In this document: positions 1,213-63,332 of the stretch, one piece after another
Layout: every line of letters begins with the position of its first letter
Numbering within the stretch: position 1 is the stretch's first letter
NCBI GenBank assembly: GCA_019747895.1
Contig: JAIEQF010000013.1
Span: forward strand, 67,104 to 131,103
Direction of reading: 5' to 3'
DNA: 64,000 nucleotides
Source of the DNA: Chthoniobacterales bacterium
GTDB lineage: Bacteria > Verrucomicrobiota > Verrucomicrobiia > Chthoniobacterales > UBA6821
The notes under the pieces: generated by a model
What the model was told of the DNA's origin: nothing
The model's input: the letters and a program-made list of their open reading frames with translations, nothing else
Database searches by the model: none
Made by a program: the position numbers and the translations under genes

Positions 1213-2082
1213 CTCTTTTTTTGGAGTCACATGATAACTCGCTGGCCAGCAGATTTGGCGACGGAGGAGCCAATGGACGCCGATCAAGTCAAGAATGCCA
1301 TGGCTCATTCTTTTGAAAATGGTGTAGTTTGATTGACCAAAGCGGCGAGGGCGATGATTTACTGGAAACTGTCCTAAGGTGAGCCCTGCGTTTTCTAACA
1401 TGGCAATCATGTAGCATTGCATTTGATTAAAAGGCATGAGGAATCGGAGATATTCTTTGCGGATGACTTTGAGCGTGCAGCCTGCATCGCGAACGGTATC
1501 ACCAGTAAAAAATTTGCGAACTTTATTGGCAACTTTAGAAGCGGCTTTGACCTGCCAACTATCTTTGCGATTTTTACGATAGCCGCAGACAACATCATAA
1601 TTTTTTGATTCGCGAACTAACATTGGAATATCAGCAGGATCGTTTTGACCATCTCCATCCATCAAGACGCAAAGGTCATGAGATGCTGCAAGTAAGCCGG
1701 CGTAGAGGGCTGCACTTTGGCCGAGATTTTTAGGGAAAGAGATCAAACGTACGTCGCTGAACTTTTTAATCAGTGATTCTGTTGCATCGTGACTCCCGTC
1801 ATTAACGGCAATGATTTCAGCATGAGGGTTGGTGAGGCGTGTTTCTTCCAAAACAGCAACGACGTTGTCTTTTTCGTTGTAGAAAGGAATGATGATCGAA
1901 ATAGACCTATTTGAAAACTCTACTGCTGACGCGCATAGCTGCGTCGCGCCGGTGCTCGAGTTGTCGAGTATTTCCTTATACACTCCGCCTCTGCGCTCCG
2001 TCGCTCCTTGCTCTGCATCGCCAGCAGCGAGTTTTGAAAGAGGTCTAGTGTTGAAAAAGGCTTGGTCGTGATCTTGAGACAT
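1207..2082 (-). CDS. Glycosyltransferase family 2 (polyprenol-phosphate sugar synthase-like) with a 48-aa PE1 insert near the N-terminus
   Basis: IIIPFYNE, VNDGSHD, NLGQSAAL, MDGDGQNDP motifs; insert RPLSKLAAG...VEFSNRS precedes the first beta strand. Confidence 0.88.
   Translation of the reverse strand: MSQDHDQAFFNTRPLSKLAAGDAEQGATERRGGVYKEILDNSSTGATQLCASAVEFSNRSISIIIPFYNEKDNVVAVLEETRLTNPHAEIIAVNDGSHDATESLIKKFSDVRLISFPKNLGQSAALYAGLLAASHDLCVLMDGDGQNDPADIPMLVRESKNYDVVCGYRKNRKDSWQVKAASKVANKVRKFFTGDTVRDAGCTLKVIRKEYLRFLMPFNQMQCYMIAMLENAGLTLGQFPVNHRPRRFGQSNYTIFKRMSHGILDLIGVHWLLRRQICWPASYHVTPKKEE
1902..2047. mobile_element. PE1 palindromic element copy A (146 bp), in frame in the GT2 gene
   Basis: Ends tagacctatttgaaaactc / gagttttgaaagaggtcta are imperfect inverted repeats; core cgtcgcgccggtgctc...tcgagt...atacactc is shared with the other copies. 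Confidence 0.92.
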
Positions 2083-2094
2083 AGAAGGAGATTA

Positions 2095-2952
2095 TCACAT
2101 AGGAAGCAAGCCGACAAGGCGCATGGGAGCCTCGGTGCCATGAAGAGTCTTGATCGGAAGAGCCAAAATAAAACTTCCAGTTGGTGGCAGGCTGATAGAG
2201 TTGGCCACGTTTTCAACAATATATTTTTCAGATCCTAGAAAAGCCGCATGCACGGGATAGCCGCTCTCAGGCCGATCTGGAGAGAGTGTGTCGATGCCGA
2301 GGCCGACCGCTTTTCGCTGGATCAAGAAGTCGGCTGCTTCTTTGGAAACGGAAGGAAAGCGATAGTTGTTGTGATAGCGCTCTGGCTGATTCCAAAATTG
2401 ATCCCAGCCTGTTCTAATCAGAACAAAACTATTTGGCGCGATCATGCCCTCTTTTTTTTCAAAGAGTGCAAGATCATCGAGGGAGAGGGTGTAGCTTTCA
2501 TGAGCTTGCGCTGAGACATCGATCATCACGCAAGGTGCTATGAGATTGTTGAGATCTAGCTGTTCGACGGTTGCTTTTCCACGGCTGCAATGGGCTGGTG
2601 CATCGATGTGGGTTCCAATGCCGGCATGCATCTTGAGTTGTTGAACGCGAAAAGAAACATCGCTGGTTGTCAGATCGTAATCAAGTTTTACCTCCTGATG
2701 AAATCCACACGTGCCAGTCCATGAGGAGATTTTTTCATCGAGGGTGTGGGTCAGATCGATGATGTGATAAGGGAAAGCAGAGTCTGTCCAAATGCTACTG
2801 CTAGAGCGCAGGACTGCGTCACTCCGATGCTCGCGTCCTCGAGTATGTTCATATACACTGCGGGTCTGTGCTTCTCGTTCCTTGTCCTGCATCCCTAGCA
2901 GCGCATTTTGATCAGACTCGCCACTTACTATAGTAGCTAGATTTTTTTTCAT
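2095..2952 (-). CDS. Cyclase family / kynurenine formamidase-like metal hydrolase with a PE1 insert
   Basis: IIDLTHTL, HAGIGTHIDAPAH, GLGIDTLSPD, EAPMRLV motifs. Confidence 0.88.
   Translation of the reverse strand: MKKNLATIVSGESDQNALLGMQDKEREAQTRSVYEHTRGREHRSDAVLRSSSSIWTDSAFPYHIIDLTHTLDEKISSWTGTCGFHQEVKLDYDLTTSDVSFRVQQLKMHAGIGTHIDAPAHCSRGKATVEQLDLNNLIAPCVMIDVSAQAHESYTLSLDDLALFEKKEGMIAPNSFVLIRTGWDQFWNQPERYHNNYRFPSVSKEAADFLIQRKAVGLGIDTLSPDRPESGYPVHAAFLGSEKYIVENVANSISLPPTGSFILALPIKTLHGTEAPMRLVGLLPM
2780..2919. mobile_element. PE1 copy B (~140 bp), in frame in the cyclase gene, read in a third frame
   Basis: Ends gagtctgtccaaatgc / gcattttgatcagactc; core gcgtcactccgatgctcgcgtcctcgagt...atacact. 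Confidence 0.85.
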
Positions 2953-2972
2953 GTTTTCTCAAATTTGGATCA

Positions 2973-3488: not shown

Positions 3489-3496
3489 GGTTAAAG

Positions 3497-3530
3497 CAGG
3501 ATACAGGTTACAGGTTGCAGGCTACAGGTA
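3497..3530 (-). repeat. Heptamer tandem array, 8 nt before the ATG at 3488 on the minus strand
   Basis: caggata caggtta caggttg caggcta caggta. Confidence 0.85.
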
Positions 3531-5381: not shown

Positions 5382-6188
5382 TTAAAAGAGTCCAGCAATA
5401 ATGTTCACGACTAACGCCAGGATGGAAGTATTAAAAAAGAAAGCGAGTAATCCATGAAGTAAGACCAGGCGACGAAGGCGATGTTGTGTAATGCCGACAT
5501 CAGCTACTTGGCAAGTCATTCCGATGACAAAAGAAAAATAAACAAAGTCCCAATAGTCTGGAAATTTTTCGTCACCAGGAAAAAGCAAGCCTCTTGCAAT
5601 GGGAGATTTTTTTCGGAAGTTGATGGCCTCAATTTTCAGCGGTTGCTGAACTTGTTGTGAGGGTGCTACGTCTGCATTTGCGGATTCTTTATGGACAACA
5701 AGAGATTTGCTGCTTTCTCCTGCTTCCAACTCACCACGATAGTAGGCATGGGCATAGAGTGTTGCGAAGCGCGTGTGTACAAAAACCCAGGAAAGAGCAA
5801 TGGTTCCCAATGCTAGGAAAATGGTTTCGCTGGCATGTGAGGTGAGTTTAGTTTTAGAGGAATTTAAAAGAAGCCACGTTGCTAAAAAGCTAGCTGCCGC
5901 TGCAGCAACAACGATGAAAAAAAGAAAATGACGGGCGTTATCTTTGAGGCGGAGTTGCTGTCTTATTTCATAGGGATCTTTTGTGAAAATCAAAGCCCAG
6001 GTAGTAACAATACTCGTCACAGCAAATCCATCCCAAGCAATGATCATTGGTATTGGAAATGATGTGTATTGCTGAAATCCTAAAAATAAAAAAAGAGCAA
6101 TAAGGCACTCAAGCACCCAATATTCATGAAAGCGCAGAAAATGATGGGATCGCTTTGCGAATTGGGTTATTTTTTCCGGTGATGGCAT
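5382..6188 (-). CDS. DUF1345-family membrane protein
   Basis: IAWD, YAHAYY, LLFPG..PDYWDFVYFSFVIGMTCQVADV and H-x-x-L-A-F-F-F-N-T motifs. Confidence 0.88.
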   Translation of the reverse strand: MPSPEKITQFAKRSHHFLRFHEYWVLECLIALFLFLGFQQYTSFPIPMIIAWDGFAVTSIVTTWALIFTKDPYEIRQQLRLKDNARHFLFFIVVAAAAASFLATWLLLNSSKTKLTSHASETIFLALGTIALSWVFVHTRFATLYAHAYYRGELEAGESSKSLVVHKESANADVAPSQQVQQPLKIEAINFRKKSPIARGLLFPGDEKFPDYWDFVYFSFVIGMTCQVADVGITQHRLRRLVLLHGLLAFFFNTSILALVVNIIAGLF

Positions 6189-6483: not shown

Positions 6484-8685
6484 ATGAAAACAGAAAATTT
6501 TTTTTCACAATCTCTAGCAGGGACTGTTGTTTTTTTAGTGGCATTGCCACTTTCTCTCGGTATTGCTTTGGCCTCCGGAGCTCCTTTGATTTCCGGATTA
6601 CTCGGGGCAATGGTTGGTGGTCTTATAGTTGGAGTGATTAGTGGCTCTGAAGTGAGTGTTAGTGGACCTTCTGCGGCATTGGCTTCGATTGTTGTTCAAC
6701 AAATAGCAAGGCTTCATTCTTACGAAGCTTTTTTATTAGCCCTCTTTTTTGCTGGGATCATTCAAGTCATCATGGGCTTCTGCCGTGCAGGATTTATTGC
6801 AGAGTTTTTCCCAGCAAGTGTGATCAAAGGTCTTCTAGTAGCAACGGGTCTCTTGATCGCTCTCAAGCAGATTCCCCATCTTGTAGGATATGATCGAACT
6901 CCTTTTGGCTATGAAGAATTTTTGGAAGCAAATGGAGAAAATACCTTCAGTGAAATTATTAAAGCTTTCTCTCATTTTCAGCCTGGGGCCTTAACTATTG
7001 GTTTGATATCATTGGTAGTCTTAGTGGTATGGGAAGTCAGCAAATCGTTAAAAAAGTTTCCCATTCCAGCAGCGCTCATCGTTGTTGTTATTGCCATCGC
7101 GATTAATAAAGTCTTTCTTCACTTAGGAAGTTCGTGGGTTGTTGCTGCCTCTCAATTGGTCCAGATTCCTCAGATTGCAACACCGGAAGCATTTCTAAAG
7201 ACGATGAAATTTCCTGATGCTACTCAACTTTTTCAGCCTGCCATTTATGGTGCAGCCATGATGATTGCTTTCAGTGCTAGCTTGGAGAGCTTATTAAATT
7301 TAGAAGCGACGGATAAGATCGATCCTAATCAACGGGTCAGTTCTCCTCATCGCGAGTTGATTGCTCAAGGAGTTGGAAATATGTTGTTAGGATTAATCGG
7401 AGGAATGCCAATTAGTTGTGCCGTTGTTCGTAGTAGTGCGAATATTGATGCTGGGGGACGCTATCGATTTGCAACTATTGTTCATGGTCTTTTGCTCATG
7501 ATTAGCGTCTTGTTTTTGCCTGGGCTTATCAATCAAATCCCACTTTCTGTCTTGGCTGCTATTTTAGTTGTTGTCGGTTTTAAATTAGCAGCGCCTCGAT
7601 TTTTTATTAGTACGTGGAAAGAGGGGGGGAGTCAGTTTCTCCCTTTTATCATTACTGTTGTCGGTATTATTCTCACCAATTTTTTGGTTGGTGTTTTAAT
7701 TGGTCTTTCCATCAGTTTGCTCTTTCTCCTTTACACCAATTGGCAGCGTCCTGTTGTTGAGGTTGTAGAAAAACATGCAGCTGGAGAGGTCTTGCGCATT
7801 GCATTAGGAAACCAAGTGAGTTTTCTGAATCGTCCCTCGTTGGCCAGAGCATTAAATACTGTTTCTTCAAATAGTCACCTTCTGCTTGATGCTCGTAACA
7901 CCGATTATATTGATCCTGACATTCTGAGTCTCATTCATGATTTTCTTCGGACAAAAGCCAAGGTTCGAAATATTGTTGTGAGCCTTCTCGGTTTTAAAAA
8001 GAAATATTCCCGCTTAAAAAATATTATTCGTTATGTTGATTATTCGACTCAAGAGCTTCAATCAAAACTGGCTCCTGCTGAAGTGCTCGCGATTTTAAAA
8101 GAGGGGAATGAGCGCTTCCAAAAAGGAGCTCCCTTGTTTCGCGATTATCGGCTTCAAGTTCAAAAAACTGCGAGCGACCAATATCCGATGGGAGTTATTC
8201 TAAGTTGTATTGACAGTAGAGCGCCTGTCGAAATGATTTTTGATGCTGGGGTTGGTGATCTTTTCAGCATTCGCATGGCAGGTCAGGTAGCTCATGCCAA
8301 GGAGCTGGCGAGCATGGAGTATGGATGTGTGGTTGCTGGTGCTAAACTCATCGTGGTGCTAGGACATAGTTCTTGTAGTGCTGTGAAAGCTGCAGTTGAT
8401 TTTTTTCAACGTGGCGTCACAGCGCAACAAGAAACTGGCTGCGAGCATCTTGATTTATTATTGAAAGAAATTCAAAAGTCGATTGAGGCGAATATGCCTT
8501 TCTCTTTTTCTTCGCATGAAGAAAAAGCAACTTATATTGATGAGGTGGCGCGACGGCATGTTATGGCTACTATCTATTTTATTCATCAGGAAAGTCCTTC
8601 TCTCCATCGCCTCGCTCAAGAGGGAAAGATCGCTATTGTGGGAGCCTTTTATGATGTAGAGACTGGAAAGGTGGAGTTTCTTTAA
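6484..8685 (+). CDS. SulP-family anion transporter fused to a beta-carbonic anhydrase
   Basis: N-terminal SulP (VALPLSLGIALASGAP, GPSA, RSSANIDAG); C-terminal SCIDSRAPVE, LGHSSC motifs. Confidence 0.93.
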   Translation: MKTENFFSQSLAGTVVFLVALPLSLGIALASGAPLISGLLGAMVGGLIVGVISGSEVSVSGPSAALASIVVQQIARLHSYEAFLLALFFAGIIQVIMGFCRAGFIAEFFPASVIKGLLVATGLLIALKQIPHLVGYDRTPFGYEEFLEANGENTFSEIIKAFSHFQPGALTIGLISLVVLVVWEVSKSLKKFPIPAALIVVVIAIAINKVFLHLGSSWVVAASQLVQIPQIATPEAFLKTMKFPDATQLFQPAIYGAAMMIAFSASLESLLNLEATDKIDPNQRVSSPHRELIAQGVGNMLLGLIGGMPISCAVVRSSANIDAGGRYRFATIVHGLLLMISVLFLPGLINQIPLSVLAAILVVVGFKLAAPRFFISTWKEGGSQFLPFIITVVGIILTNFLVGVLIGLSISLLFLLYTNWQRPVVEVVEKHAAGEVLRIALGNQVSFLNRPSLARALNTVSSNSHLLLDARNTDYIDPDILSLIHDFLRTKAKVRNIVVSLLGFKKKYSRLKNIIRYVDYSTQELQSKLAPAEVLAILKEGNERFQKGAPLFRDYRLQVQKTASDQYPMGVILSCIDSRAPVEMIFDAGVGDLFSIRMAGQVAHAKELASMEYGCVVAGAKLIVVLGHSSCSAVKAAVDFFQRGVTAQQETGCEHLDLLLKEIQKSIEANMPFSFSSHEEKATYIDEVARRHVMATIYFIHQESPSLHRLAQEGKIAIVGAFYDVETGKVEFL

Positions 8686-8727
8686 ACCGATCTTGAAATC
8701 CTACTGTGGCGGCGAAGAGGTGTGTTG
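8683..8727. mobile_element. Truncated PE1 left end starting at the SulP-CA stop codon
   Basis: taaaccgatcttgaaatcctactgtggcggcgaagaggtgtgtt aligns with the left end of copy D (taaacctgccttgtaagttctactgagagagcgaagagctgcgtt). Confidence 0.6.
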
Positions 8728-8747
8728 AGGTTGTAAGAAAAATTTTT

Positions 8748-8780
8748 CCTGTAACCTATAACCTATAACCTATAACCTGC
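8748..8780 (+). repeat. Heptamer tandem array, 4 nt before the ATG at 8785
   Basis: cctgtaa cctataa cctataa cctataa cctgc. Confidence 0.88.
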
Positions 8781-13368: not shown

Positions 13369-14940
13369 ATGGAAAAACGTACGTTCGAGGCGCTCGGCCT
13401 CTCTCCCGAGATGATGAAGGCTGTGGCTCAACTTGGCTTTGAGGAAGCCTCGCCGATTCAAACAGCGGCTATTCCACTTTTATTAAGTGGTGCTGATGTT
13501 GTTGGGCAATCTCAAACCGGTTCTGGAAAAACAGCAGCTTATGCTATTCCAGCTATTGAAAAAATAGATCCGACGAGCAAAGCAGTTCAAGTCTTGGTTC
13601 TCTGCCCAACGCGCGAGCTAGCAACACAAGTTGCGGATGAAGTTTATAAGCTGACAGCTTTCAAACGAAATATTCATTGTGTTCCGATTTATGGCGGCGC
13701 TTCCTACGAGCGTCAGCTTTTTGAATTAAAAAAAGGAGTTCAAATTGTCATTGGAACGCCAGGTCGTGTCATGGATCACTTAGAGCGTGGCACATTGAAG
13801 TTGGATCAGATTAAGGTTGTTGTTTTGGATGAAGCGGATCGCATGCTCGACATGGGATTCCGTGATGATATTCAAGTCATTCTTGAAAAGACACCTGAAG
13901 ATCGACAGACAGTTTTCTTTTCGGCAACGCTTTCCAAGCCGATTCGCGATTTGATTAATCGTTTTTCACATGAACCACAGACCGTCAAGATCGAGCAGAA
14001 GGAATTGACTGTTCCAACGGTTGAACAATGGTTTTATGAAGTTCCTGGACGCATGAAGACTGAAGCGTTTATTCGACTTATCGATTTTCATGGCTACAAA
14101 CTTGGGATCATTTTTTGTAATACGCAACGGATGGTTGATGAACTGGCTGATGCACTCTTGGCGCAGGGATTTTCAACCGATCGTCTTCATGGCGGCATTC
14201 CGCAAGCTCAGCGGACCCGCGTGATGAATAAATTTAAAAACTCTGAATTTGAATTTCTTGTGGCAACCGATGTGGCAGGACGAGGGATTGATGTTGAGTC
14301 TTTAGAGCTCGTGGTCAATTACGATCTTCCATACGATCCCGAGGATTACGTGCATCGCATTGGACGCACAGGACGAGCTGGAAAAAAAGGAGTAGCCATG
14401 ACCTTTGTCACGGGTCGTGATATTTATAAACTTCAATTTATTGAACGCTACACCAAAACAAAAATTCGTCGTGGGATACTTCCGACAGTCGGAGAGGTTG
14501 AAGGAAAACGTGCAGAACAACTTTACGCAAAACTCCAGAAACAACTTCAACAAAACTCGTTCAAAAAACATGAGATCATCATGGATCGTTTGTTAGAAGA
14601 GGGATATTCTTCGACTGATATTGGATCTGCTCTCTTTTCAATGCTATTGGGAAATGCTCCTGAAGCCCCTAAAAAAGTCGCTGTAGAGCCTTCTCGCGAG
14701 CGCGAGTCGCAAGATTTTTCTTTTGCGCAAGCTAAGGGAGGTCGAGGTGGGCATCGTAATGACCGCCGAGAAGCTCCTCGTGGAGGTCAAGGTTTTAAAA
14801 GTGGTCCTCCTCGCCGTGATCGGGGCGAACAACGCAGCGGACCTCCAAGGCGCAATAGCGACTACCGAGCTGATGCACCAAGAAGTGGTTCTTTTAAAAA
14901 AGGGCCCGTGCGCAAATATTCGAAGGCAGAAAGAAATTAA
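13369..14940 (+). CDS. deaD: DEAD-box RNA helicase (DeaD/CshA-like)
   Basis: Q motif, GSGKT, PTRELA, DEAD, SAT, HRIGRTGR; RG-rich tail. Confidence 0.92.
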   Translation: MEKRTFEALGLSPEMMKAVAQLGFEEASPIQTAAIPLLLSGADVVGQSQTGSGKTAAYAIPAIEKIDPTSKAVQVLVLCPTRELATQVADEVYKLTAFKRNIHCVPIYGGASYERQLFELKKGVQIVIGTPGRVMDHLERGTLKLDQIKVVVLDEADRMLDMGFRDDIQVILEKTPEDRQTVFFSATLSKPIRDLINRFSHEPQTVKIEQKELTVPTVEQWFYEVPGRMKTEAFIRLIDFHGYKLGIIFCNTQRMVDELADALLAQGFSTDRLHGGIPQAQRTRVMNKFKNSEFEFLVATDVAGRGIDVESLELVVNYDLPYDPEDYVHRIGRTGRAGKKGVAMTFVTGRDIYKLQFIERYTKTKIRRGILPTVGEVEGKRAEQLYAKLQKQLQQNSFKKHEIIMDRLLEEGYSSTDIGSALFSMLLGNAPEAPKKVAVEPSRERESQDFSFAQAKGGRGGHRNDRREAPRGGQGFKSGPPRRDRGEQRSGPPRRNSDYRADAPRSGSFKKGPVRKYSKAERN

Positions 14941-14968
14941 CCGCAAAGAACGCAAAGAGCGCAAAGAA
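14936..14968 (+). repeat. 9-mer REP-like repeat beginning at the deaD stop codon
   Basis: attaaccgcaaagaacgcaaagagcgcaaagaa. Confidence 0.85.
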
Positions 14969-14975
14969 GATAGAG

Positions 14976-16715: not shown

Positions 16716-16870
16716 CAGGTTACAGCCTTACAGGTTACAGGTTGTCAGCAAATGCGATTGATGAAAATATTTCTAAAAAATGAAACCAAAGAAAAAGTAA
16801 CAAAAGAAAAAATAAATTTCATAAAAATTTTCTTCAGCCTGTAACCTGTACGCTATAACCTGTATACCTG
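16716..16870. repeat. Inverted pair of heptamer arrays (16716-16744 and 16835-16870); the second ends 4 nt before the ffh ATG
   Basis: caggttacagccttacaggttacaggttg / cagcctgtaacctgtacgctataacctgtatacctg. Confidence 0.8.
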
Positions 16871-16874: not shown

Positions 16875-18368
16875 ATGTTTTCCCGTCTTTCCGATCAACT
16901 TCAACAAACTTTTAAAAATCTCCGAGGCCAAGGACGTATCACCGAGGCCAATATTTCTGAAGCGCTCCGCGAAGTCCGCCTTGCCTTGCTTGACGCCGAT
17001 GTTCATTTTCAAGTTGCCAAGGATTTTATTGCGAGAGTCAAAGAAAAAGCCTTAGGAGAGACGGTTCTAAAAAGCGTTGCTCCAGGGCAGCAGATCATCA
17101 AAATTTTTCAAGATGAGTTAACGCAATTACTCGGCGGAGATGCCGCTCCTCTTAATTTAAACAAGCCAGCGCGCATTTTAATGGTCGGACTGAATGGTGC
17201 AGGAAAAACAACTTCTTCTGCCAAGTTAGCAAAATGGTTAAAAGCACAAGGGCAACATCCGATGCTCGTAGCGCTTGATTTGGTCAGGCCAGCAGCTATT
17301 GAGCAGCTTGTGACGTTAGGAAAACAAATCGAGGTTCCTGTTTTTGCGCCAGTAGACTTCTTCCGAAACTCTACTTCTGACGCGAATTGCGGCGTCGCTC
17401 CGGTGCTCGCGTCATCGAGTATTAATTATACACTCAGCCGCTGTGCGCCGGAGGCTCCTGGCACTTCGTCGCCAGAAGCGAGTTTTGAAAAAAGTCTAGT
17501 GCCTGGTTCTACTAATGTTTTAGCGGTGGCTCGTGAAGCTCTTGCTTGGTGTGAGCAGCAACATGGCAATGTGACTATTTTTGATACAGCGGGACGTCGA
17601 GAAATTGATGAGGCGCTTGTGAATGAATTGAGTCAATTAAAAGAGTTGTTCCAACCACAGGAGATTTTATTGGTTTGTGACGGAGCTACCGGACAACAGG
17701 CAGTGAGTGTCGCGGAACGATTTCACGCAGCACTCGGGCTAACGGGGCTCATTCTTACTAAATTAGATGGTGATGCTCGTGGTGGCGCTGCTCTTTCTTT
17801 GCGTTCAGTGACTGGGAGGCCGATTAAATTTGTGGGTGTCGGAGAGAAGCTTGATCAATGGGATCTGTTTCATCCTGATCGCCTCGCGGGACGTATTCTT
17901 GGAATGGGAGATATTGTTAGTTTTGTCGAAAAAGCAGCAGAGGCTGTTGAGATGGATGAGATGATGCAATTGGAGAAAAAATTAAAAACATCTTCCTTGG
18001 ATCTGAATGATTTTTTAGCTCAGTTGAAAATGATTCGACGGATGGGGCCCTTAGAAAATCTTGTTGGGATGTTGCCTGGGGGAGCGAAACTTCCTCCCAA
18101 TGTCACGAATGGAAAAGAACTCACCAGGATAGAAGCCATCATTTTTTCAATGACTCTCGAGGAACGAAAACGCCCGGAGATCCTTAATGCACGCCGTCGC
18201 CATCGGATTGCGCAGGGGAGTGGTACCACGGTAACGGAAGTCAATAGCCTCCTTCTTCGCTTTCAGCAACTCAAGAAGATGACAAAAAACATGGGGAATA
18301 TGAAAAAAATGCTGGCCCAATTCGGGAAAAGCGGATTAAATATGCCCAACCGTTCTTGGAGAGCATAA
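16875..18368 (+). CDS. ffh: Signal recognition particle protein Ffh with a 48-aa PE1 insert in the GTPase domain
   Basis: GLNGAGKTT, DTAGR, TKLDGDARGG, RILGMGD and M-domain motifs. Confidence 0.96.
   Translation: MFSRLSDQLQQTFKNLRGQGRITEANISEALREVRLALLDADVHFQVAKDFIARVKEKALGETVLKSVAPGQQIIKIFQDELTQLLGGDAAPLNLNKPARILMVGLNGAGKTTSSAKLAKWLKAQGQHPMLVALDLVRPAAIEQLVTLGKQIEVPVFAPVDFFRNSTSDANCGVAPVLASSSINYTLSRCAPEAPGTSSPEASFEKSLVPGSTNVLAVAREALAWCEQQHGNVTIFDTAGRREIDEALVNELSQLKELFQPQEILLVCDGATGQQAVSVAERFHAALGLTGLILTKLDGDARGGAALSLRSVTGRPIKFVGVGEKLDQWDLFHPDRLAGRILGMGDIVSFVEKAAEAVEMDEMMQLEKKLKTSSLDLNDFLAQLKMIRRMGPLENLVGMLPGGAKLPPNVTNGKELTRIEAIIFSMTLEERKRPEILNARRRHRIAQGSGTTVTEVNSLLLRFQQLKKMTKNMGNMKKMLAQFGKSGLNMPNRSWRA
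17353..17498. mobile_element. PE1 copy C (146 bp), in frame in ffh
   Basis: Ends tagacttcttccgaaactc / gagttttgaaaaaagtcta, TA at both ends; deleting 144 bp restores VPVFAPV-VPGSTNVLAVAREAL. Confidence 0.95.
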
Positions 18369-18500
18369 GACTTGTTTGTCGTTTTTCAGAGTCTAGAAAA
18401 TTTTTCTAGTTTCTAAAAACGGCCACTGTTCTTAAAAGATGTAAAAAATGCTTGAACGGTCAGGCGTAAGCCGGCATCAACATTTACCCAATCGATTACC

Positions 18501-22200: not shown

Positions 22201-22968
22201 ATGAAATGTGTCATTTTAGCAGGTGGCCTTGGAACCCGCATTAGCGAAGAAACGGTGCTCAAGCCAAAACCAATGGTAGAAATCGGAGGGAAGCCCCTTC
22301 TTTGGCATGTGATGAAAATTTATTCCGCACATGGCATTAACGACTTCATTATCTGTGCTGGCTACAAGGGATATTTGATCAAAGAATATTTTGCTAACTA
22401 TTTTCTGCACATGTCAGATGTTACTTTTGACATCAAAGAAAATAGTATGGAGGTTCATGAGCGTTATGCTGAGCCATGGAAAGTGACCGTTGTGGATACG
22501 GGAGAGGAGACGATGACTGGAGGGCGTTTAAAAAAAGTAGCTCGTTATCTTGGAGCCGAGACGTTTTGTATGACCTATGGTGACGGAGTGGGAGATGTTG
22601 CTATTCCAAAGGTTTTAGAAGCACATCATTGCAGTCAGCGCAAAGCCACCATCACTGCAGTGCAGCCACCAGGGCGCTTCGGAGCGCTTCATCTTGAAAA
22701 TGATGCCGTCGCTCATTTTATTGAAAAGCCAGAGGGTGATGGCGCTTGGATTAATGGTGGTTTTTTTGTTTTAGAGCCAGAGGTGCTTTCCTACATCGAG
22801 CATGATCAGATCATCTGGGAACGAGAACCCTTGCAGCGCCTTGCTCAGGAAAAAGAATTGTCGGCTTATCAACATCATGGTTTTTGGCAGCCAATGGACA
22901 CCCTTCGTGACAAGCAGCTGCTTGAAGAGTTGTGGCATAAGGGGCAGGCTCCGTGGAAGATTTGGTAA
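22201..22968 (+). CDS. rfbF: Glucose-1-phosphate cytidylyltransferase
   Basis: [43 protein letters not shown]. Confidence 0.96.
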
Positions 22969-23111
22969 ACCTGCCTTGTAAGTTCTACTGAGAGAGCGAA
23001 GAGCTGCGTTACTCCGGTGCTCGTCGCTTCACGTATTAGATATACGCTCAGCGCCTGTGCTCCGAGGCGCCTTGCTCTTCATCACTCTCAGCGAACTTCC
23101 AAAGCAGGTTA
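22967..23111. mobile_element. PE1 copy D, intergenic, starting at the rfbF stop codon
   Basis: Ends aacctgccttgtaagttc / gaacttccaaagcaggtt; core ctccggtgctcg...tatacgctcagcgcctgtgc. Confidence 0.88.
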
Positions 23112-24491: not shown

Positions 24492-24493
24492 TC

Positions 24494-41720: not shown

Positions 41721-41925
41721 CCACAAAGAACTACAAAAAAAGAAGAAATTAACCGCAAAGAAGGAAATACAAAAAGTTGAAGGTAGAGGCTTCCTTGGTT
41801 AATGTTCTGTATTCATTCGCATGAGAATCGAAGCTTATGAATTTGAGAGAGCAAGCTGCTGTCAGATTTTTTCTTTGCGTTCCTTGCGGTTAATTATTTT
41901 TCCTTATGTTATTTTGCGGTTAATT
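41716..41925. repeat. Inverted 9-mer REP-like pair between sufC and sufB
   Basis: aattaaccacaaagaa...ttaaccgcaaagaa (41716-41763) versus ttctttgcgttccttgcggttaat...ttgcggttaatt (41869-41925). Confidence 0.8.
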
Positions 41926-43354: not shown

Positions 43355-43389
43355 AAAAAAGAATGAGTCACAAAGAATATTTAGAAAAA

Positions 43390-43590
43390 AGAATAGCCAC
43401 AAAAGAACGCAAAGAACGCAAAGAAAGAAAATTGAGCTGATAGCATATTCTTTAGTGTCGCTTGCAATCTACTTTTGAATGCAGGAAAAGTAAGCGAGGT
43501 AGTATTATTTTTTGCGTTCTTTGTGTTCTTTTGTGGCTATTCTCTTCTTTTCCTTAAGTTACTTTATGGCTATGCTCTTCGCGGTTAATT
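43390..43590. repeat. Inverted 9-mer REP-like pair between sufB and sufD
   Basis: gaatagccacaaaagaacgcaaagaacgcaaagaa versus ttttgcgttctttgtgttcttttgtggctattc. Confidence 0.85.
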
Positions 43591-46057: not shown

Positions 46058-47154
46058 TCAGCTCCCGGGCGCTGATAGCGAAAGCCACTGAGGGTTGGTG
46101 TCGTTGAAATCTTTTTTCCAAGACCCAGGAATTTAAACGAGCGGCCCATGGTTTCTGGGTGTAGCAGTGTCTGTAGAAGACGAAATTCTTTTTGCTCAGC
46201 AGGTGTGAGCATTTTATTTTCAAACGTTCGCAACCAAGCTTCGGAGGCTCCAATAAGAAAATGATGCTGATCACTATAGCCGAGGATTTCAAAATGATGT
46301 TGCAGCGCTTTCTCAGCAAGGTCGGTAAAATCGACATGGGCTGTGATGTCGCGCTTGCCAATATTCTCAAAAGGATTGTCGTAGCGCTGATGGTTTTCAT
46401 AACAGGCAATGCTTCCTTCCGCTCGGTAAGAGGCAAAGCGATCGACTCCCGCATACCCATAATCTGCGACGAGGATCATGCCTCGCTTCATCCGTGCCTC
46501 AATAGCTTGCAGCCAGGGAGCGATGCCAAGCCGCACTTCCCATAAAAATCCCGGAGCAAGATCGCGCGGTAGTTTTTTTGCGACGCTCTGGAGTTCCTCT
46601 TGTTCGATCGGAAGCGTGATCCAATCATTTGCTGTCACACGTTGTTCTTGCCACTCCCCATCATTCCAGCGGAGCAAGTGAACAGGGAAGGCATCTAGAA
46701 GTTCATTCGAAAAATGGACGCCTTCAAATTCTGGGAGGTCCTCAAGTTTTTCTACCCAGAAAACATTTCGATGGTGCTTCAATGTCTCTTGCTGTTTTTT
46801 TTGATGAATAAAAAAAGGCTCAATGATGTAGTAGTGGATCGCAGAAAAAAAATCTGATGAGGCTTCCGCTGCCTCCAAAATATCGAGGGCCAGCCTTCCG
46901 TCGTTGGCTCCTTGTTCTAGGAGCGTGAAAGGTTTTGGTCGGCCCATTTTTTCCCAGAGCTCTTTAAAAAAGAGTGCCAAAATTTTCCCGTAAATTTTTC
47001 CCACGCTTACATTGGTAAAAAAATCACCAGCTTTGCCAATGTGGACGCGACCAGAAGCGTAGTAGCCCTGCTCAGGATCGTAGAGAGCCTGCTCCATAAA
47101 TTGGGCGAAGGAGATGGAAGGGGAATTCACAGCGATGAAAAAATTATTAACCAC
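46039..47154 (-). CDS. SAM-dependent methyltransferase, MidA/NDUFAF7 family
   Basis: FAQFMEQALYDP..GYY, GDFFT, EQGANDG, SNELLDAFP, DYGY, DITAHVDF; start uncertain. Confidence 0.9.
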   Translation of the reverse strand: MVNNFFIAVNSPSISFAQFMEQALYDPEQGYYASGRVHIGKAGDFFTNVSVGKIYGKILALFFKELWEKMGRPKPFTLLEQGANDGRLALDILEAAEASSDFFSAIHYYIIEPFFIHQKKQQETLKHHRNVFWVEKLEDLPEFEGVHFSNELLDAFPVHLLRWNDGEWQEQRVTANDWITLPIEQEELQSVAKKLPRDLAPGFLWEVRLGIAPWLQAIEARMKRGMILVADYGYAGVDRFASYRAEGSIACYENHQRYDNPFENIGKRDITAHVDFTDLAEKALQHHFEILGYSDQHHFLIGASEAWLRTFENKMLTPAEQKEFRLLQTLLHPETMGRSFKFLGLGKKISTTPTLSGFRYQRPGADYLFGS

Positions 47155-58845: not shown

Positions 58846-60354
58846 ATGAGATACCAGAGCTGGCTAACTATATATCTTTTTTTCTTTTATGGAAGTTCTC
58901 TTCTTGTTGCCGTAGAAAGTTCTTTTCAAGAAAAGCATGCTGCTACTGCTGGACCAGAGATAGGACAACAGCCAGCTGCCTATATTAAAGCTGCTGCTGC
59001 GCCAGTTCCAGCAGTGCCTCAGTTTTCTTCTCAAAAAAGTTATAACCTGGGAAACTTAATTGATCTTGCGCTGAATAATAATCCTTCTACCCGCGCAGCA
59101 TGGAGTCAGGCAAAAGCTGCTTCAGCCTCCGTAGGAGAGGCGCGTTCTCTTTACTATCCGTGGGTGAAAGCTGGTTTTACTGGAGGGTACGACCAGAATT
59201 ATCTTCCTCTTACTACAGGTCTTAATGTTTATAACCGGACTCAGGCCACGGTCTTTTTTAGCTTGGAATATATTTTGCTCGATTTTGGGCGAAGGGATGC
59301 TGATGTGGCACGAACGATTGCTACCTTCAATGCGCTTGGTCTAACGTACCAGCGTAAGTTGCAAGAAATTATTTTTGCCGTCCAAAAAGTTTATTTTGCG
59401 CACGAGGCTGCTCTTTGGAAAAAAAAGGCAGCAGAAACGAACCTCGCTTTTTTATCAACCCTAGCTGACATGATTGCCCGAGAAAATGTTACTGGTTTGT
59501 CAGCAGGACCAGAGCTGCTCAAAGCACGAAAACAAGTTCTTGAAGCCCAGTACGAGGTGGAGTCCGCTAGGGCGAAGGTCAAAAATACATTAGGAGAGCT
59601 CTGCGTTGCCACAGGGCTTCCAGCTAATACGCCTTTGCAAATCACAACGACAGAGCGTCCTGTTTCGACCAAAAAACTACGAGGAGATGCCAATGAATTA
59701 GTGCGTCGGGCGCTTGTCTTTCGTCCTGATATTGCCGCTCGTGTAGCTGAGCTGAAAGCCAGTAAAGAAGCCACGCGACGAGCCATTGCTGATTTTTTTC
59801 CTGTTATTAAACTGCATTCAGACTATATCAACAGCACTTTTGGATATACCGCGACTGATGGGACCTTGAATGGAACATATGGTGGAGGTGGGATTTCTGG
59901 GGTTAATGGTTTTGTCATGGCGAGCTGGGATATTTTTGATGGTTTGGAGCGCATCTTTAAAGTTCGGCAGCGACAAGAAGAAGATAAAGTTGCTGAACGA
60001 AACTTAGAGCAGACAAAGTTGAATACAACACGAGATGTTTGGACTTCTTACAATGATAGTTTGACAGCAGAGCAAAGGGTTAATTTTGCTGAAGGATATG
60101 TGGCCTCTGCTAAAGAAACATTTGATGCCGTCAAAACGGCCGTAGAGACAGGTTTAACGAATGTTACTGATTTTGCTGAGTCAGGGAGTAATGTTGCTAA
60201 TGCTGATTCAGAATTGGCTAGTGCTGTCGCGGACTATTCGACAGCATTGGCGCTGCTTGCATTTTCAGTGGGAACTACGACTCCTGCGCCTTCTCGTGTT
60301 CCTGAAGACTTGGGAAAGCCGGGAGAGTTGAAGTTAAGAGCGTTGTCGTTTTAA
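58846..60354 (+). CDS. TolC-family outer-membrane efflux protein
   Basis: ALNNNPS, LLDFG, RPDI, WDIFDG motifs. Confidence 0.9.
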   Translation: MRYQSWLTIYLFFFYGSSLLVAVESSFQEKHAATAGPEIGQQPAAYIKAAAAPVPAVPQFSSQKSYNLGNLIDLALNNNPSTRAAWSQAKAASASVGEARSLYYPWVKAGFTGGYDQNYLPLTTGLNVYNRTQATVFFSLEYILLDFGRRDADVARTIATFNALGLTYQRKLQEIIFAVQKVYFAHEAALWKKKAAETNLAFLSTLADMIARENVTGLSAGPELLKARKQVLEAQYEVESARAKVKNTLGELCVATGLPANTPLQITTTERPVSTKKLRGDANELVRRALVFRPDIAARVAELKASKEATRRAIADFFPVIKLHSDYINSTFGYTATDGTLNGTYGGGGISGVNGFVMASWDIFDGLERIFKVRQRQEEDKVAERNLEQTKLNTTRDVWTSYNDSLTAEQRVNFAEGYVASAKETFDAVKTAVETGLTNVTDFAESGSNVANADSELASAVADYSTALALLAFSVGTTTPAPSRVPEDLGKPGELKLRALSF

Positions 60355-60368
60355 AATGACTAAAAAAA

Positions 60369-60507
60369 ATTAACCGCAAAGAACGCAAAGAGCGCAAAAA
60401 AAGACAGGGAAAGAGCAGTGGAAATTTTTATTCTTTGCGTTCTCTGCGTTCTTTGCGGTTAATTTTCTTCTTCTTTTCTTTTGGTTTTTGTGTTCTTTGT
60501 GGTTAAT
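60369..60507. repeat. Inverted 9-mer REP-like pair
   Basis: attaaccgcaaagaacgcaaagagcgcaaaa versus ttctttgcgttctctgcgttctttgcggttaat. Confidence 0.85.
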
Positions 60508-60518: not shown

Positions 60519-62939
60519 ATGAAAAACCTAACTCGCTTCTTAATCACACTTGCTTTGGTTGCCGTTGCTGCTCGAGGAGGTGATCAAAAACTTCCCATTG
60601 CACAACAAAATGCGCTTGATGAAAACAGTGTTCTCTTTGTGCCGCAAGGCTACGACGCGAAGACCAATCCTTCGTTTGCCTTTGAACAACCGCTTAAGCC
60701 ACTTGGGCCTGTTCCTAAACATTGGAAACTCTTTCCTCGTTTTTCATCAGATGTAAAAACAACAAAGGTGATTCTTGATGTTCCCTTCCAAGCCTCTCTC
60801 TATGGGACAGGGGAGGTGACTGGTCCGCTCTTGCGTAATGGAAAGAAAATCACGCTCTGGAATACTGATAGCTCAACTTACGCTGTTGCTCATGGCAAGC
60901 GCCTTTATCAAACGCATCCGTGGGTGTTGGGAGTGCGTCTTGATGGAACCGCTTTTGGTATTATTTTTGACACAACGTGGAAAGCAAAATTGGAGACAAC
61001 GTCACATCAGATCGTTTTAATGAGTGAAGGTCCTCCATGTCGCGTGGTTATCATCGAGGGAAAAAATCCACAAGTCGTCGTTCGCAAGCTGGCGGATCTG
61101 ACCGGAAAAATGCCACTTCCGCCAAAATGGGCGATTGGCTTTCAACAATGCCGCTATTCTTATTATCCCGATGCAAAGGTGCGTGAGATTGCCGATCAAT
61201 ATCGTGCTCGTCATCTGCCGTGTGATGTCATCTGGCTCGACATTGATTACATGGATGGGTATCGCAGTTTTACGTTTGATCCAAAGCGTTTTCCTGATCC
61301 TAAGGCCACGAATGACTATTTGCACGAGCATGGCTTTCACTCTGTTTGGATTATTGATCCTGGAATCAAGATTGATCCTAACTATTTTGTCTATCAACAG
61401 GGGACAAACCTGCTTTCAAATTCTACTGAGGCTGTGAATAACAGCGTCGCGCCGGTGCTCGCGTCATCGAGTAGCAACTCGCTCGCTCCCGCGAGTCTCG
61501 CCCTTACGGGCTGCCTAACGGCAGTCGATCCAGCGGCTGCCACGCCGCATGTATGTAGAGATACACTCAGCCGCTGTGCGCCGTCGGCTCCTTCTTCTTC
61601 ACTACCCTCAGCGAATTTTAAAGCAGGTTTGCGAGCAGGGGGGGTGAATACTGCTTGGGTGCTGACTAAAAATGGTCAACCGTTTCATGGCACTGTCTGG
61701 CCGGGAGATTCTGTCTTTCCTGATTTTACGATGCCTGCCGTGCGGCATTGGTGGTCGGAACTCTATCATGATTTCTTAGCTCAAGGAGCTGATGGCATTT
61801 GGAACGATATGAATGAACCTTCGGTTTTTAATGGTCCTCGTCAGACGATGCCTGAAAATAATTGGCATCGCGGAGGAGGGGGGCTTCCTTCTGGTATTCA
61901 TCGGATGTATCACAATGTTTATGGAATGCTGATGGCATCAGCAACGCGGGCTGGTATCTTGCACGAGCGTCCTGACAAACGTCCGTTTCTTTTGTCACGC
62001 TCCAATTATCTCGGGGGCCAGCGCTATGCGACCACATGGACTGGAGACAATAGTTCCGGGATGCATTATTTGAAAATGTCGATTCCGATGGGGCTCAATC
62101 TTGGTCTTTCGGGATCGCCTTTTAATGGGGTTGATCTTGGTGGTTACGCGGGGAGAGAAAACCCTGATCTTTTTGGAAAATGGATTGTGATGTCAGCCTT
62201 TTTTCCTTTCTCGCGAGCTCACACAGCCACCTACAATCCTCCGAGAGAGCCATGGGTTTTTGGACCCAAAATTGAAACCGTCACTCGTGTCGCTTTGGAA
62301 CGGCGATATCGCATGTTGCCTTACCTCTACACGCTCTTCCACAAAGCCTCGCAATACGGTGATCCGATCATGCAGCCAGTTTTCTTTGCTGATCCCAAAA
62401 ACTTGTTGCTTCGTTCTGAAGATCAAGCTTTTCTTTTGGGGACAGATCTCTTGGTGGTGCCGCGTTGGGCTCGCTTTCCACGGTTGCCGGGAGGTATTTG
62501 GCGTGATGTTTCTCTTCTTCCCGGAAAACGGGAGGAAGATGGATATCAGCCTCGCATCAAGATCCGCGGTGGTGCCATTGTGCCACTCGGTCGGGTGATT
62601 CAAAACACCAACGAAGAATCACTGAAGCCGTTGACGTTGCTTGTTTGTCTCAATGAAAAAGGGGAAGCGCGTGGAAGTCTCTACGAAGACGCTGGCGAAG
62701 GCTTCGGTTATAAAACGGGAGACTATGCGCTGACGCATTATCACGCCATTCGCAAAGGAAAGACCGTAATGGTCACCATGGAAAAGCGAGAAGGGAATCG
62801 CGCTATTCCAGATCGTCCCGTCCATGTGCAGTTGGTCGTCAATGGTCCAGACTTAGAAAAGAGCGGTTTTGAATCAGGAGGGGTTGTCTTAAAGCTGCCT
62901 CTCAACCTCTATGAAAAAATAGCAGAAAAAACAAAATAA
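60519..62939 (+). CDS. GH31 alpha-glucosidase with a 75-aa PE1 insert
   Basis: IWLDIDYM, IIDPG, GIWNDMNEP (nucleophile), TWTGDN, RYRMLPYLY. Confidence 0.93.
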   Translation: MKNLTRFLITLALVAVAARGGDQKLPIAQQNALDENSVLFVPQGYDAKTNPSFAFEQPLKPLGPVPKHWKLFPRFSSDVKTTKVILDVPFQASLYGTGEVTGPLLRNGKKITLWNTDSSTYAVAHGKRLYQTHPWVLGVRLDGTAFGIIFDTTWKAKLETTSHQIVLMSEGPPCRVVIIEGKNPQVVVRKLADLTGKMPLPPKWAIGFQQCRYSYYPDAKVREIADQYRARHLPCDVIWLDIDYMDGYRSFTFDPKRFPDPKATNDYLHEHGFHSVWIIDPGIKIDPNYFVYQQGTNLLSNSTEAVNNSVAPVLASSSSNSLAPASLALTGCLTAVDPAAATPHVCRDTLSRCAPSAPSSSLPSANFKAGLRAGGVNTAWVLTKNGQPFHGTVWPGDSVFPDFTMPAVRHWWSELYHDFLAQGADGIWNDMNEPSVFNGPRQTMPENNWHRGGGGLPSGIHRMYHNVYGMLMASATRAGILHERPDKRPFLLSRSNYLGGQRYATTWTGDNSSGMHYLKMSIPMGLNLGLSGSPFNGVDLGGYAGRENPDLFGKWIVMSAFFPFSRAHTATYNPPREPWVFGPKIETVTRVALERRYRMLPYLYTLFHKASQYGDPIMQPVFFADPKNLLLRSEDQAFLLGTDLLVVPRWARFPRLPGGIWRDVSLLPGKREEDGYQPRIKIRGGAIVPLGRVIQNTNEESLKPLTLLVCLNEKGEARGSLYEDAGEGFGYKTGDYALTHYHAIRKGKTVMVTMEKREGNRAIPDRPVHVQLVVNGPDLEKSGFESGGVVLKLPLNLYEKIAEKTK
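61405..61631. mobile_element. PE1 copy H, long form (227 bp), in frame in GH31
   Basis: Ends caaacctgctttcaaattc / gaattttaaagcaggtttg (18/19 complementary); central module shared with copy E. Confidence 0.94.
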
Positions 62940-62982
62940 ATTCTTGCCACTCTTTCAATTCACTGTTACTTTTTTCCGCCTC

Positions 62983-63192
62983 ATGCCAAAAGCAATCGCA
63001 CGTAGTAAAACAAAGAAGTCTGTTGCAAAACGATTCAAAATCACAGCGACAGGTAAAGTCATTCGCTCCAAAGCCGGACGCCGCCACTTGCTGGAATGTA
63101 AGAATTCCAAGTTAAAACGCAATATGGGCAAACGCGCTGTGGTGGAAGCTTGTGATGTGAATCATATCAAAGCAAACCTCCCTTGGGGATAA
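62983..63192 (+). CDS. rpmI: 50S ribosomal protein L35
   Basis: KTKKSVAKRFKITATGK...GRRHLLECK; precedes rplT. Confidence 0.95.
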   Translation: MPKAIARSKTKKSVAKRFKITATGKVIRSKAGRRHLLECKNSKLKRNMGKRAVVEACDVNHIKANLPWG

Positions 63193-63332
63193 TTTCCTCA
63201 TAAATTCTACTGATGCAGCGAGGAACGGCGTCATGTCGGTGCTCGCGTCATCGAGTATTAATTGTACACTCAGCCACTGTGCGCGGCCGTTACTTGTTCC
63301 TTATCTGCCTTAGCGAATTTCTAAGGGAATTA
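63190..63332. mobile_element. PE1 copy I, intergenic, starting at the rpmI stop codon
   Basis: Ends taatttcctcataaattc / gaatttctaagggaatta; core cggtgctcgcgtcatcgagtattaattgtacactcagcc. Confidence 0.9.

Follow-up and report, generated by a model that had tools for sequence, protein, structure and literature searches.

A 64,000-nucleotide stretch of contig JAIEQF010000013.1 from a Chthoniobacterales bacterium (Verrucomicrobiota), analysed at its full length and called the window below, carries a set of similar palindromic segments, several of which lie inside the open reading frames (ORFs) of unrelated genes. The question raised by this locus is whether these segments are copies of a mobile element that enters genes in frame and is translated with them, in the manner of the Rickettsia palindromic elements (RPEs). 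Such an element, named PE1, had been proposed from the sequence of the window. The analysis reported here makes it probable that PE1 is a non-autonomous palindromic element of freshwater Verrucomicrobiota, resembling a MITE (a miniature transposable element with inverted repeats), which acts like RPE-1 and is probably a distant relative of it, survives in genes where it is in frame, and would be moved in trans. Palindromic 'selfish' elements that insert in frame have mostly been regarded as an oddity of Rickettsia and of a small number of other reduced intracellular genomes. A dense family is now found in uncultured lake Verrucomicrobiota (about 44% G+C), with nine copies in 64 kb that include insertions in ffh, mutL and other housekeeping genes.

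PE1 copies in the window

The window contained one palindromic family, represented by nine copies and a fragment. An nhmmer profile built from seven short copies recovered all nine (E-values from 2e-41 to 1e-14), and all nine could be aligned together, which confirms that the segments named in the original prediction form one family and removes the objection that they might not align as such. An additional weak match at 8684-8726 (E-value 0.0017) corresponded to a left-arm fragment. Seven of the copies were 140-146 nt long and two (28476-28702 and 61405-61631) were 227 nt long, the former being the sole copy of the window in reverse orientation. The predicted division of the copies also held, with seven in stop-free host ORFs and two (22967-23111 and 63190-63332) between genes, in a window with a coding density of 88%. 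Pairwise divergence among the copies was 10-40%. When folded, every copy but the decayed one at 48449 formed a long hairpin (z-scores of -2.7 to -6.4 against shuffled controls), and the hairpin energies of the PE1 copies were -43 to -94 kcal/mol.

The copies and the features tied to them are listed below, where 'same' and 'opposite' denote the frame that is read when the element and its host gene run in the same or in opposite directions, and L050 is a locus from another genome.

1902-2047, plus strand: 146-nt copy of the TAGACC arm type, in the GT2 glycosyltransferase ORF 1207-2082 (minus strand), codons 12-60, 'opposite' frame (RPLSKLAAGDAEQGA...AVEFSNRS)
2780-2919, plus strand: 140-nt copy of the AGAGTC arm subfamily, in the putative cyclase ORF 2095-2952 (minus strand), codons 12-57, third frame
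8684-8726, plus strand: left-arm fragment of about 40 nt, beginning in the TAA stop codon (8683-8685) of ORF 6484-8685
17353-17498, plus strand: 146-nt copy in ffh (16875-18368), G domain, aa 160-208, 'same' frame (DFFRNSTSDANCGVAPVLASSS...)
22967-23111, plus strand: 145-nt intergenic copy, the first bases of which give the TAA stop codon (22966-22968) of the NTP-transferase ORF 22201-22968; both canonical frames closed
28476-28702, minus strand: 227-nt long form in the HAD/KdsC-like ORF 28465-29160, codons 4-79
28552-28633, minus strand: 81-nt module nested at the apex of this long form
48449-48594, plus strand: 146-nt copy, the most decayed, hairpin lost, in the 591-aa ORF 47331-49106 (minus strand), aa 171-219, 'opposite' frame; a stop codon now closes the frame not in use
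49912-50057, plus strand: 146-nt copy of the AGAACC arm type, in mutL (49566-51500), ATPase domain, aa 116-164
51963-51964, no strand: empty site in the NUDIX-like ORF 51566-52186; the L050 orthologue is filled
61405-61631, plus strand: 227-nt long form in the GH31 alpha-glucosidase gene (60519-62939), aa 296-371
61474-61556, plus strand: nested 81-nt module, itself a small palindromic element, found elsewhere alone or at other positions
63190-63332, plus strand: 143-nt intergenic copy between rpmI and rplT, with stop codons in all frames; also present in the syntenic L050

The AGAGTC arm subfamily was intergenic apart from the copy at 2780-2919. In ffh, a 144-nt unit (17354-17497) was flanked by AGT on both sides.

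Filled and empty sites

The host genes were compared with their orthologues, as the original prediction had advised (loci from other genomes are given L-numbers and homologous proteins P-numbers). For Ffh, all 119 other homologues listed were 440-530 aa long, and those 94-95% identical in amino acid sequence outside the insert lacked the 49 residues, as did the orthologues P0002 and P0003. In nucleotides, the difference between the window and the empty allele L049 was exactly 147 nt. A third allele (L047:4050-4190; orthologue P0001) kept the first ~28 nt of PE1 as an in-frame remnant of 12 nt net (VSFSGN); read from its sequence, this remnant shows what would be a PE1 insertion decaying into an ordinary loop indel.

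The GH31 insert was absent from every orthologue listed, including P0175 with 94% identity. The contig that carries P0175, L050, was syntenic with the window between 50.8 and 63.9 kb at about 90-95% nucleotide identity; its GH31 site was empty, the intergenic copy at 63190 was present, and its MutL had 593 aa as against 644 aa in the window. A reciprocal case was found in the NUDIX-like gene, where L050 carried a long-form copy and the window was empty, with a difference of exactly 228 nt (282 aa vs 206 aa). Filled and empty alleles thus occurred between genomes about 92% identical. The Ffh and GH31 segments are not ancient loops common to all orthologues, because close orthologues lack them. 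The coding copies had been said to add 144 or 225 nt; the clean filled/empty comparisons gave 147 and 228 nt (49 and 76 codons), through a flanking 3-nt repeat. More empty sites were sought in 46 genome loci, which shared no overlap with the window. The filled and empty alleles provide natural-population material for the study of insertion frequency, of the sites at which proteins tolerate inserts and of the decay of insertions to loop indels.

Within the syntenic region, a variable island was also observed: window 52205-54070 (a 621-aa ORF without a Pfam family) corresponded to L050:1791-3855 with different genes, and the flanking genes were syntenic.

Reading frames of the in-gene copies

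In-gene PE1 copies that are co-oriented with their gene were read in one frame (DFFRNSTADANCGVAPVLASSSINYTLSRCAPEAPGTSSPAASFERSL) and opposed copies in another (RPLSKLAAGDEEQGA..GAQRLSV..LDDASTGATQLFASAVEFGKRS); the copy at 2780 used the third. Length variants in genes differed from 146 nt by multiples of three (167 and 227 nt), and the frame in use was always open. The unused canonical frame was open in just 6 of 13 co-oriented copies, and all six intergenic PE1-like copies tested (144-146 nt) were closed in both frames. Of the 146-nt type, 23 of 25 copies lay in long ORFs; among the other subfamilies, no more than 3 of 34 copies did (Fisher P = 5e-11). Several intergenic copies began exactly at the stop codon of an upstream gene on the same strand. 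We infer that insertions in genes persist only with the frame kept and no stop codon, and that the inserts would be translated as extra hydrophilic loops of 49 or 76 residues, tolerated by the host. In-gene copies may outlast intergenic ones, since they may be hard to lose if a deletion has to be in frame to be viable. The contrast of coding-compatible subfamilies, which reside in genes, with incompatible ones, which lie between genes and at stop codons, is a clear natural experiment on how selection filters transposon insertions.

Alternatively, the segments could be excised from the mRNA like introns, or bypassed as in T4 gene 60 or mitochondrial 'byp' sequences, so that proteins of normal length are made. 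Very stable hairpins (-43 to -94 kcal/mol) inside essential genes would suit such a process. However, removal needs neither an open frame nor a length divisible by three, and every in-gene copy has both, including the 167- and 227-nt variants and the 12-nt remnant of L047. Copies that keep the frame and lack stop codons are expected if the inserts are translated and are not expected if they are removed from the RNA or bypassed. Subfamilies that carry stop codons, or whose length is not divisible by three, are kept out of gene interiors, Rfam gave no match to an intron or ribozyme, and the arm mismatches on the sense strand showed no excess of G-U over A-C. Accordingly, we regard removal or bypass as very improbable.

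A second explanation is that the host has recruited the segment, either as a functional peptide loop or as an mRNA hairpin by which the genes that contain it are adjusted in stability or translation. The core of the element is strongly conserved across subfamilies and species, and intergenic copies, which share the orientation of the upstream gene, sit exactly at stop codons, a place from which a hairpin could influence the mRNA's 3' end. Against this, the insertions are polymorphic between genomes about 92% identical, and the nearest orthologues function without them. Orientation decides which of two unrelated frames of the same DNA is read, it is the nucleotide sequence that is conserved whether a copy is coding or not, and the host proteins are functionally unrelated. 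Recruitment is a decidedly unlikely explanation of the family, and translation of tolerated in-frame insertions is preferred.

Host genes

Host proteins were named by Pfam. Four copies lay in the middle of their genes, which encode Ffh/SRP54 (G domain split), MutL (ATPase domain), a GH31 enzyme (TIM barrel split) and the 591-aa protein, for which no Pfam family was found. The PDB homologues of MutL, GH31 and Ffh aligned colinearly on both sides of each insert. The other three copies, in the GT2, putative cyclase and HAD/KdsC-like hydrolase genes, occupied positions from codons 4-12, just before the first conserved strand. The claim that the coding copies add stop-free segments to otherwise intact genes stood, with the correction that these three of the seven lie within the first 4-12 codons. 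The three near-start ORFs began 12 nt and 20 nt past the stop codon of the preceding gene or overlapped it by 4 nt (ATGA), the last being the HAD/KdsC-like ORF, whose start codon overlaps the stop codon of neuB. No start codon was present between the element and the conserved N-terminal motif in these genes. Given the start spacing and the lack of a later start codon, the long ORFs of the three hosts are plausible genes.

An AlphaFold model of Ffh, made with an 11-sequence alignment, was poor overall, with a predicted local distance difference test (pLDDT) score of 51; the insert was disordered in it (pLDDT 21-28), which as a model result gives weak support to a tolerated surface loop. In the source collection, the ffh gene call (P0009, 368 aa) starts at Met130 and not at Met1, whereas the complete ORF of 497 aa can be aligned to its orthologues starting with residue 1. 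For annotation, PE1 inserts split Pfam domains and mislead gene callers, as with ffh called from Met130.

Structure of the element and its target repeats

The anatomy of PE1 was determined from an alignment of 30 copies. The unit consisted of inverted arms of ~38 nt around a non-palindromic core of ~70 nt, GCGTCGC(G/T)CCGGTGCTCGCGTCATCGAGTAT...ATACACTCAGCCGCTGTGCGCC, which was the best conserved part. The terminal inverted repeats had been put at about 19 bp, so that the measured arms (30 paired positions) are considerably longer. The arms were highly variable between copies yet complementary, with two-sided changes at 26 of the 30 outer-helix pairs. In all, 90.7% of the cells were paired, compared with 37-48% when the partner was slid by one to three columns, and shuffles never reached the observed values. 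Arm types defined subfamilies, each with several copies across different genes and genomes.

The pairing of the arms was of the Watson-Crick type, and neither on the sense nor on the antisense strand did G-T exceed A-C. The constraint therefore acts on the palindrome as DNA and not on a fold of the RNA. Selection on the stem at the RNA level was rejected, G-T and A-C mismatches being equally rare and not following the sense strand. The pair L038:2228 and L018:5444 had been considered as orthologous copies with compensatory change in place, and was rejected because their flanks are unrelated.

Flanks of 24 copies were compared for target repeats. Direct repeats of 3 nt bracketed the 144-nt unit (225 nt in long forms), with 37 of 72 positions matching as against 22 in shuffled pairings (P = 0.0006). 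Perfect repeats were present in 5 of the 24 copies (AGT, ACT, AAT, and TGA twice; P = 0.003), and the repeats were imperfect in most old copies. The 3-nt model agrees with the net insertions of 147 and 228 nt. A TA target duplication of the IS630/mariner type was considered as well. It fits the young intergenic A/B subfamilies (Y-TA...TA-R) and fails for the 146-nt type, in which the flanks AG/CT and CA/TG are inverted and not direct, so that the 3-nt model is the better one.

The 81-nt module (GCAACTCGCTCGCTCCCGCGAG...GCCGCATGTATG) formed four small hairpins and was found in 14 copies in the sequences compared. It was located at the PE1 apex (window 61474-61556 and 28552-28633, and L032), in the PE1 right arm (L050:1431-1511, L027, L031 and L026), and in an unrelated terminal inverted repeat (TIR) element or elsewhere (L050:4170-4251 and 18304-18385, L045 and L011); further loci were L002 and L039. 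Its occurrence in three contexts indicates that the module is a nested insertion and not an ancestral part of PE1. Its length is divisible by three, and it was open in the frames in use.

Distribution of PE1

For a DNA census, a 26-base degenerate core pattern was run against a collection of species-representative genomes. The 46 matching stretches all came from four metagenome-assembled genomes (MAGs) labelled Verrucomicrobiia, Verrucomicrobia, Chthoniobacterales or Chthoniobacter, with 39 of the 46 in one MAG from Lac Pavin. The profile gave 71 matches, or about 66 copies, on the window and the 46 loci. The family was present in independent assemblies from Lac Pavin, a lake sample labelled 'K_DeepCast', 'Deming' and GROS21. 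In the Lac Pavin MAG, the 140- and 141-nt subfamilies (A/B; TAGAGCATTTTCA...AAAACGCTCTA) comprised near-identical intergenic copies with unrelated flanks, which for this reason are recent insertions. The near-identical copies in a related MAG bear out the prediction of an active or recently active family.

A word-indexed protein search with the 48-aa profile proved useless as a census, since it returned two tiny element-only ORFs and missed the window's own proteins, and it was replaced by an exhaustive search in which a profile of the 'same'-frame peptide was scored against 1.84 billion representative proteins. At an E-value of 0.001 or lower, 54 proteins were found. At least one of them, the tandem-repeat protein P0130, was a chance match, and most of the other 53 showed a 48-residue match in proteins of very different length. 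Pfam families in the peptide-bearing proteins examined were prephenate dehydrogenase, type I dehydroquinase, PD-(D/E)XK nucleases (one of which carries two peptide copies), subtilase, GT9 transferase and UCH peptidase. No PE1 DNA match was obtained in plasmid and phage collections, and tblastn of the PE1 peptide against plasmids gave chance matches only, none from Rickettsia. An Rfam 15 scan of the whole window gave nothing at gathering scores and one chance-level match (E-value 0.85) in the long form; PE1 is thus not a known structured RNA or self-splicing intron.

These assemblies also bear on whether the copies are an assembly or binning artefact, that is, a repeat misplaced into the genes of a metagenome-assembled contig. 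The contig appears to be metagenomic, and repeats are a known source of misassembly. However, in-frame copies have exact host junctions, assemblies made independently, in different studies and from different lakes, contain the family, and the copy at 63190 is common to the window and the independently assembled L050. The divergence of 10-40% between copies makes chimeras of collapsed repeats unlikely. An artefact is hardly credible on this evidence, and PE1 is taken below as a genuine family.

Comparison with RPE-1 and other known elements

Many genes of Rickettsia contain RPEs inserted in frame (Ogata et al. 2000, Science 290:347; review in PMC10969869), and N-termini bearing RPE-1 have been reported as expressed (PMC3733652). 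The original prediction that PE1 behaves like these elements was upheld, in that a palindrome of ~150 bp occurs in frame in unrelated genes whose orthologues lack the insert. PE1 and RPE-1 are both palindromes of ~150 bp in unrelated housekeeping genes, encode a peptide of ~48 residues, have insert-free orthologues and no known transposase. They differ in the host, which for PE1 is a member of the Verrucomicrobiota with ~44% G+C and not Rickettsia, and PE1 is read in two frames according to orientation. We know of no 3-nt duplication, nested 81-nt module or replication-strand bias, all of which PE1 has, in RPEs. The coding-compatible PE1 subfamilies also reside nearly all in genes (23 of 25), whereas 53 of 526 RPEs of R. 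bellii are in genes (PMC1458961).

The 'opposite'-frame peptide of the copy at 1902 matched the NCBIfam model TIGR01045 (RPE1 domain, 48 positions) with an E-value of 8.7e-4, positions 1-36 aligning to 1-36. When 'opposite'-frame peptides were scanned singly, 6 of 12 matched TIGR01045 and no other family, with E-values from 2.2e-4 (best) to below 10. Eight shuffled and two reversed peptides used as controls matched nothing, and no Pfam match was found for the 'opposite'-frame peptides. Because the matches are specific and colinear and the lengths are equal, a distant relationship to RPE-1 is likelier than chance; judged from these peptide alignments, PE1 may be a distant relative of RPE-1, beyond an analogue, and is not RPE1 as curated. 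The link to the RPE1 domain, weak but specific, raises the possibility of spread between phyla.

Protein-coding palindromic repeats have also been reported in Wolbachia (Ogata, Suhre & Claverie 2005, Trends Microbiol 13:253, as cited in PMC3733652). They are RPE-like, in frame and, as with PE1, outside the genus Rickettsia, but belong to Rickettsiales, a different phylum from that of PE1. Short intragenic GTAG repetitive extragenic palindromic (REP) sequences are known from Opitutus terrae, a Verrucomicrobium (PMC3733652). Like PE1, the GTAG/CGTC REPs are palindromes inside ORFs, including DNA-repair genes and N-termini, in a Verrucomicrobium (PMC3733652); they are 20-40 bp long, carry the GTAG/CGTC tag and are linked to RAYT genes, whereas PE1 is 146 nt long and tagless and has flanking 3-nt repeats. 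With no conserved tag at the PE1 ends and no Y1 or HUH gene in the window, PE1 was not assigned to the REP/RAYT elements.

PE1 shares several features with MITEs: it is small, ends in inverted repeats, contains no transposase ORF, is dispersed in many copies and has a target duplication. The QMITE1/2 elements of Coxiella occasionally fuse in frame (PMC5896051). They and the ERIC/RU elements (PMC2759123) share with PE1 the terminal inverted repeats, the non-autonomous state, stable hairpins and the occasional in-frame extension or interruption of ORFs. In these elements, however, intragenic copies are exceptional and mostly at ORF ends, while PE1 subfamilies reside mainly in gene interiors. A literature search found no description of the 146-nt family or of RPE-like elements in Verrucomicrobiota, in line with the original statement that none was known in the lineage. 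The interpretation first given, of an RPE-like element in a new phylum, is supported, with some features that depart from the standard MITE picture.

Mode of insertion and orientation bias

In the proposed mechanism, the unit inserts with a 3-nt target duplication of the ANT or TNA type, adding 147 nt, or 228 nt with the nested module. As the unit and the duplication are both multiples of three and the gene-resident subfamilies offer one stop-free frame in each orientation, about one third of the insertions into genes keep the frame. The insert would be translated as a hydrophilic loop that the host tolerates, and in-gene copies may be hard to lose, which would account for their build-up and ageing inside genes. 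Sister subfamilies with stop codons or with lengths that are not multiples of three survive only between genes, often at a stop codon recreated by their TAA/TAG end. Mobilisation would take place in trans, by a transposase encoded elsewhere. The MITEs of the IS5 family and the PIF-Harbinger 'Tourist' type have 3-bp TNA/ANT target duplications and ends starting with GA/GG, as in PE1; usual MITEs conserve their inverted repeats, whereas PE1 conserves its core. By analogy, the GA-type ends and the 3-bp ANT/TNA duplications of PE1 may point to an IS5-family or Harbinger-like enzyme.

The orientation of the element tracked the local GC skew, with 42 concordant and 16 discordant copies (binomial P = 0.0009), the skew being measured on short MAG fragments and the copies not all being independent. 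For in-gene copies this was independent of the host strand: 12 had the same and 2 the opposite direction in genes co-oriented with the skew (leading-strand), and 8 had the opposite and 4 the same direction in genes against it (lagging-strand; Fisher P = 0.014). The usual reading of GC skew puts the PE1 top strand on the lagging-strand template.

Several points weigh against the proposed mechanism. Neither the window nor ~300 kb of related loci yielded a transposase or an autonomous partner: window ORFs of at least 120 aa matched no transposase family, in agreement with the original prediction, and searches with the end sequences (up to 2 mismatches) together with an all-against-all megablast of 46 + 4 loci gave no repeat of insertion-sequence size. 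The strand-biased orientation (42:16) is not predicted by a symmetric cut-and-paste transposon with terminal inverted repeats. In ordinary MITEs the pattern is the other way round from that of PE1, whose core is conserved and whose arms vary and covary. Perfect duplications occur in just 5 of 24 copies, the L050 site fits poorly (TCA/TTC) and the GH31 site has 9 extra nt. A perfect 30-bp stem within an mRNA would be a plausible target of RNase III. The disorder of the Ffh insert may count for little, as the whole AlphaFold model is poor (pLDDT 51), and the TIGR01045 score of 19.2 bits is below the curated cut-off of 30, so that PE1 falls outside curated RPE1 membership.

The strand bias raises another mode of spread, in which PE1 would move as a single-stranded DNA hairpin at the replication fork, in the style of IS200/IS605, REP/RAYT or integron attC elements, and an enzyme would read the conserved core at its tip, with pairing as the sole demand on the stem; a DDE transposase that cuts and pastes double-stranded DNA would then have no part in it. 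The orientation follows the skew (42:16, P = 0.0009) regardless of the strand of the host gene (P = 0.014), 26 of 30 stem pairs covary and the core is the most conserved part; these three features together keep the explanation alive. However, the bias is moderate (72-78%) and comes from short MAG fragments with noisy skew, and the flanking 3-nt direct repeats are significant, while IS200/IS605-type insertion, to our knowledge, makes no target duplication. No conserved flanking tetranucleotide and no GTAG/CGTC tag were found, nor any HUH or RAYT gene in the window. With a duplication present and flanks variable, only the strand bias of PE1 fits an IS200/IS605-derived element. This mode of spread is considered unlikely, and a MITE-like element moved in trans remains the preferred reading.

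In a bolder and rather doubtful proposal, PE1 could be a true homologue of RPE-1. A single ancient lineage of palindromic elements that invade proteins would then have passed between the Rickettsiales and the Verrucomicrobiota, with activity continuing in lake populations. In place of ordinary TIR transposition, it would spread in the form of a DNA hairpin, the conserved tip of which would be recognised on the template of the lagging strand. Whole subfamilies would have become specialised for gene interiors as a refuge from deletion, by means of unit and duplication lengths divisible by three and of one open frame in each orientation. If this were true, hairpin spread would account for the replication-strand bias and for the freely covarying stem.

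Other repeats and possible inserts in the window

Other repeat families were also observed. An element of 168 nt was present in two copies 96% identical (window 54655-54822 and 55087-55254) with 32-nt terminal inverted repeats (TTATAGTCAAATTACTTAGAAC...). The syntenic L050 matched this family at one place only (L050:4371-4516), so that one of the two insertions is recent. A second TIR family of ~160 nt was found at window 23146-23306 and 38684-38851, with 33-nt inverted ends (ATACCATCTTTAATAATTACTAAG...); one copy directly follows the PE1 copy at 22967, and in L050 the family is joined to the 81-nt module.

Repeats of the AACCGCAAAGAACGCAAAGAA type occurred as inverted pairs in many intergenic spacers. 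They form REP-like hairpins at gene ends and may act as terminators. Their positions were as follows.

669-726 and 1169-1221: AACCGCAAAGAACGCAAAGAA-type repeats
14923-14969: AACCGCAAAGAACGCAAAGAA-type repeat
41716-41780 and 41862-41914: AACCGCAAAGAACGCAAAGAA-type repeats
43385-43435 and 43504-43555: AACCGCAAAGAACGCAAAGAA-type repeats
47146-47216 and 47280-47330: AACCGCAAAGAACGCAAAGAA-type repeats
60352-60408 and 60423-60507: AACCGCAAAGAACGCAAAGAA-type repeats
63930-63966: AACCGCAAAGAACGCAAAGAA-type repeat

Two proteins of the window entries at 24383-25987 and 5382-6188 were irregular. The DegT/E1-dehydrase-like protein had ~25 extra residues (aa 250-278) compared with PDB 3bcx, and the Pfam match of the DUF1345 protein was split in two; both irregularities could be in-frame inserts of other families. 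Finally, a 39-nt motif of tandem heptads (AAATTTTTCTGTAACCTATAACCTGTAGCCTGTAACCTG) was detected at window 158-196, 8741-8779, 16824-16862 and 51529-51567. It ends 0-12 nt before the start codons of the genes at 203, 8785, 16875 (ffh) and 51566 and could be a shared leader or promoter element.

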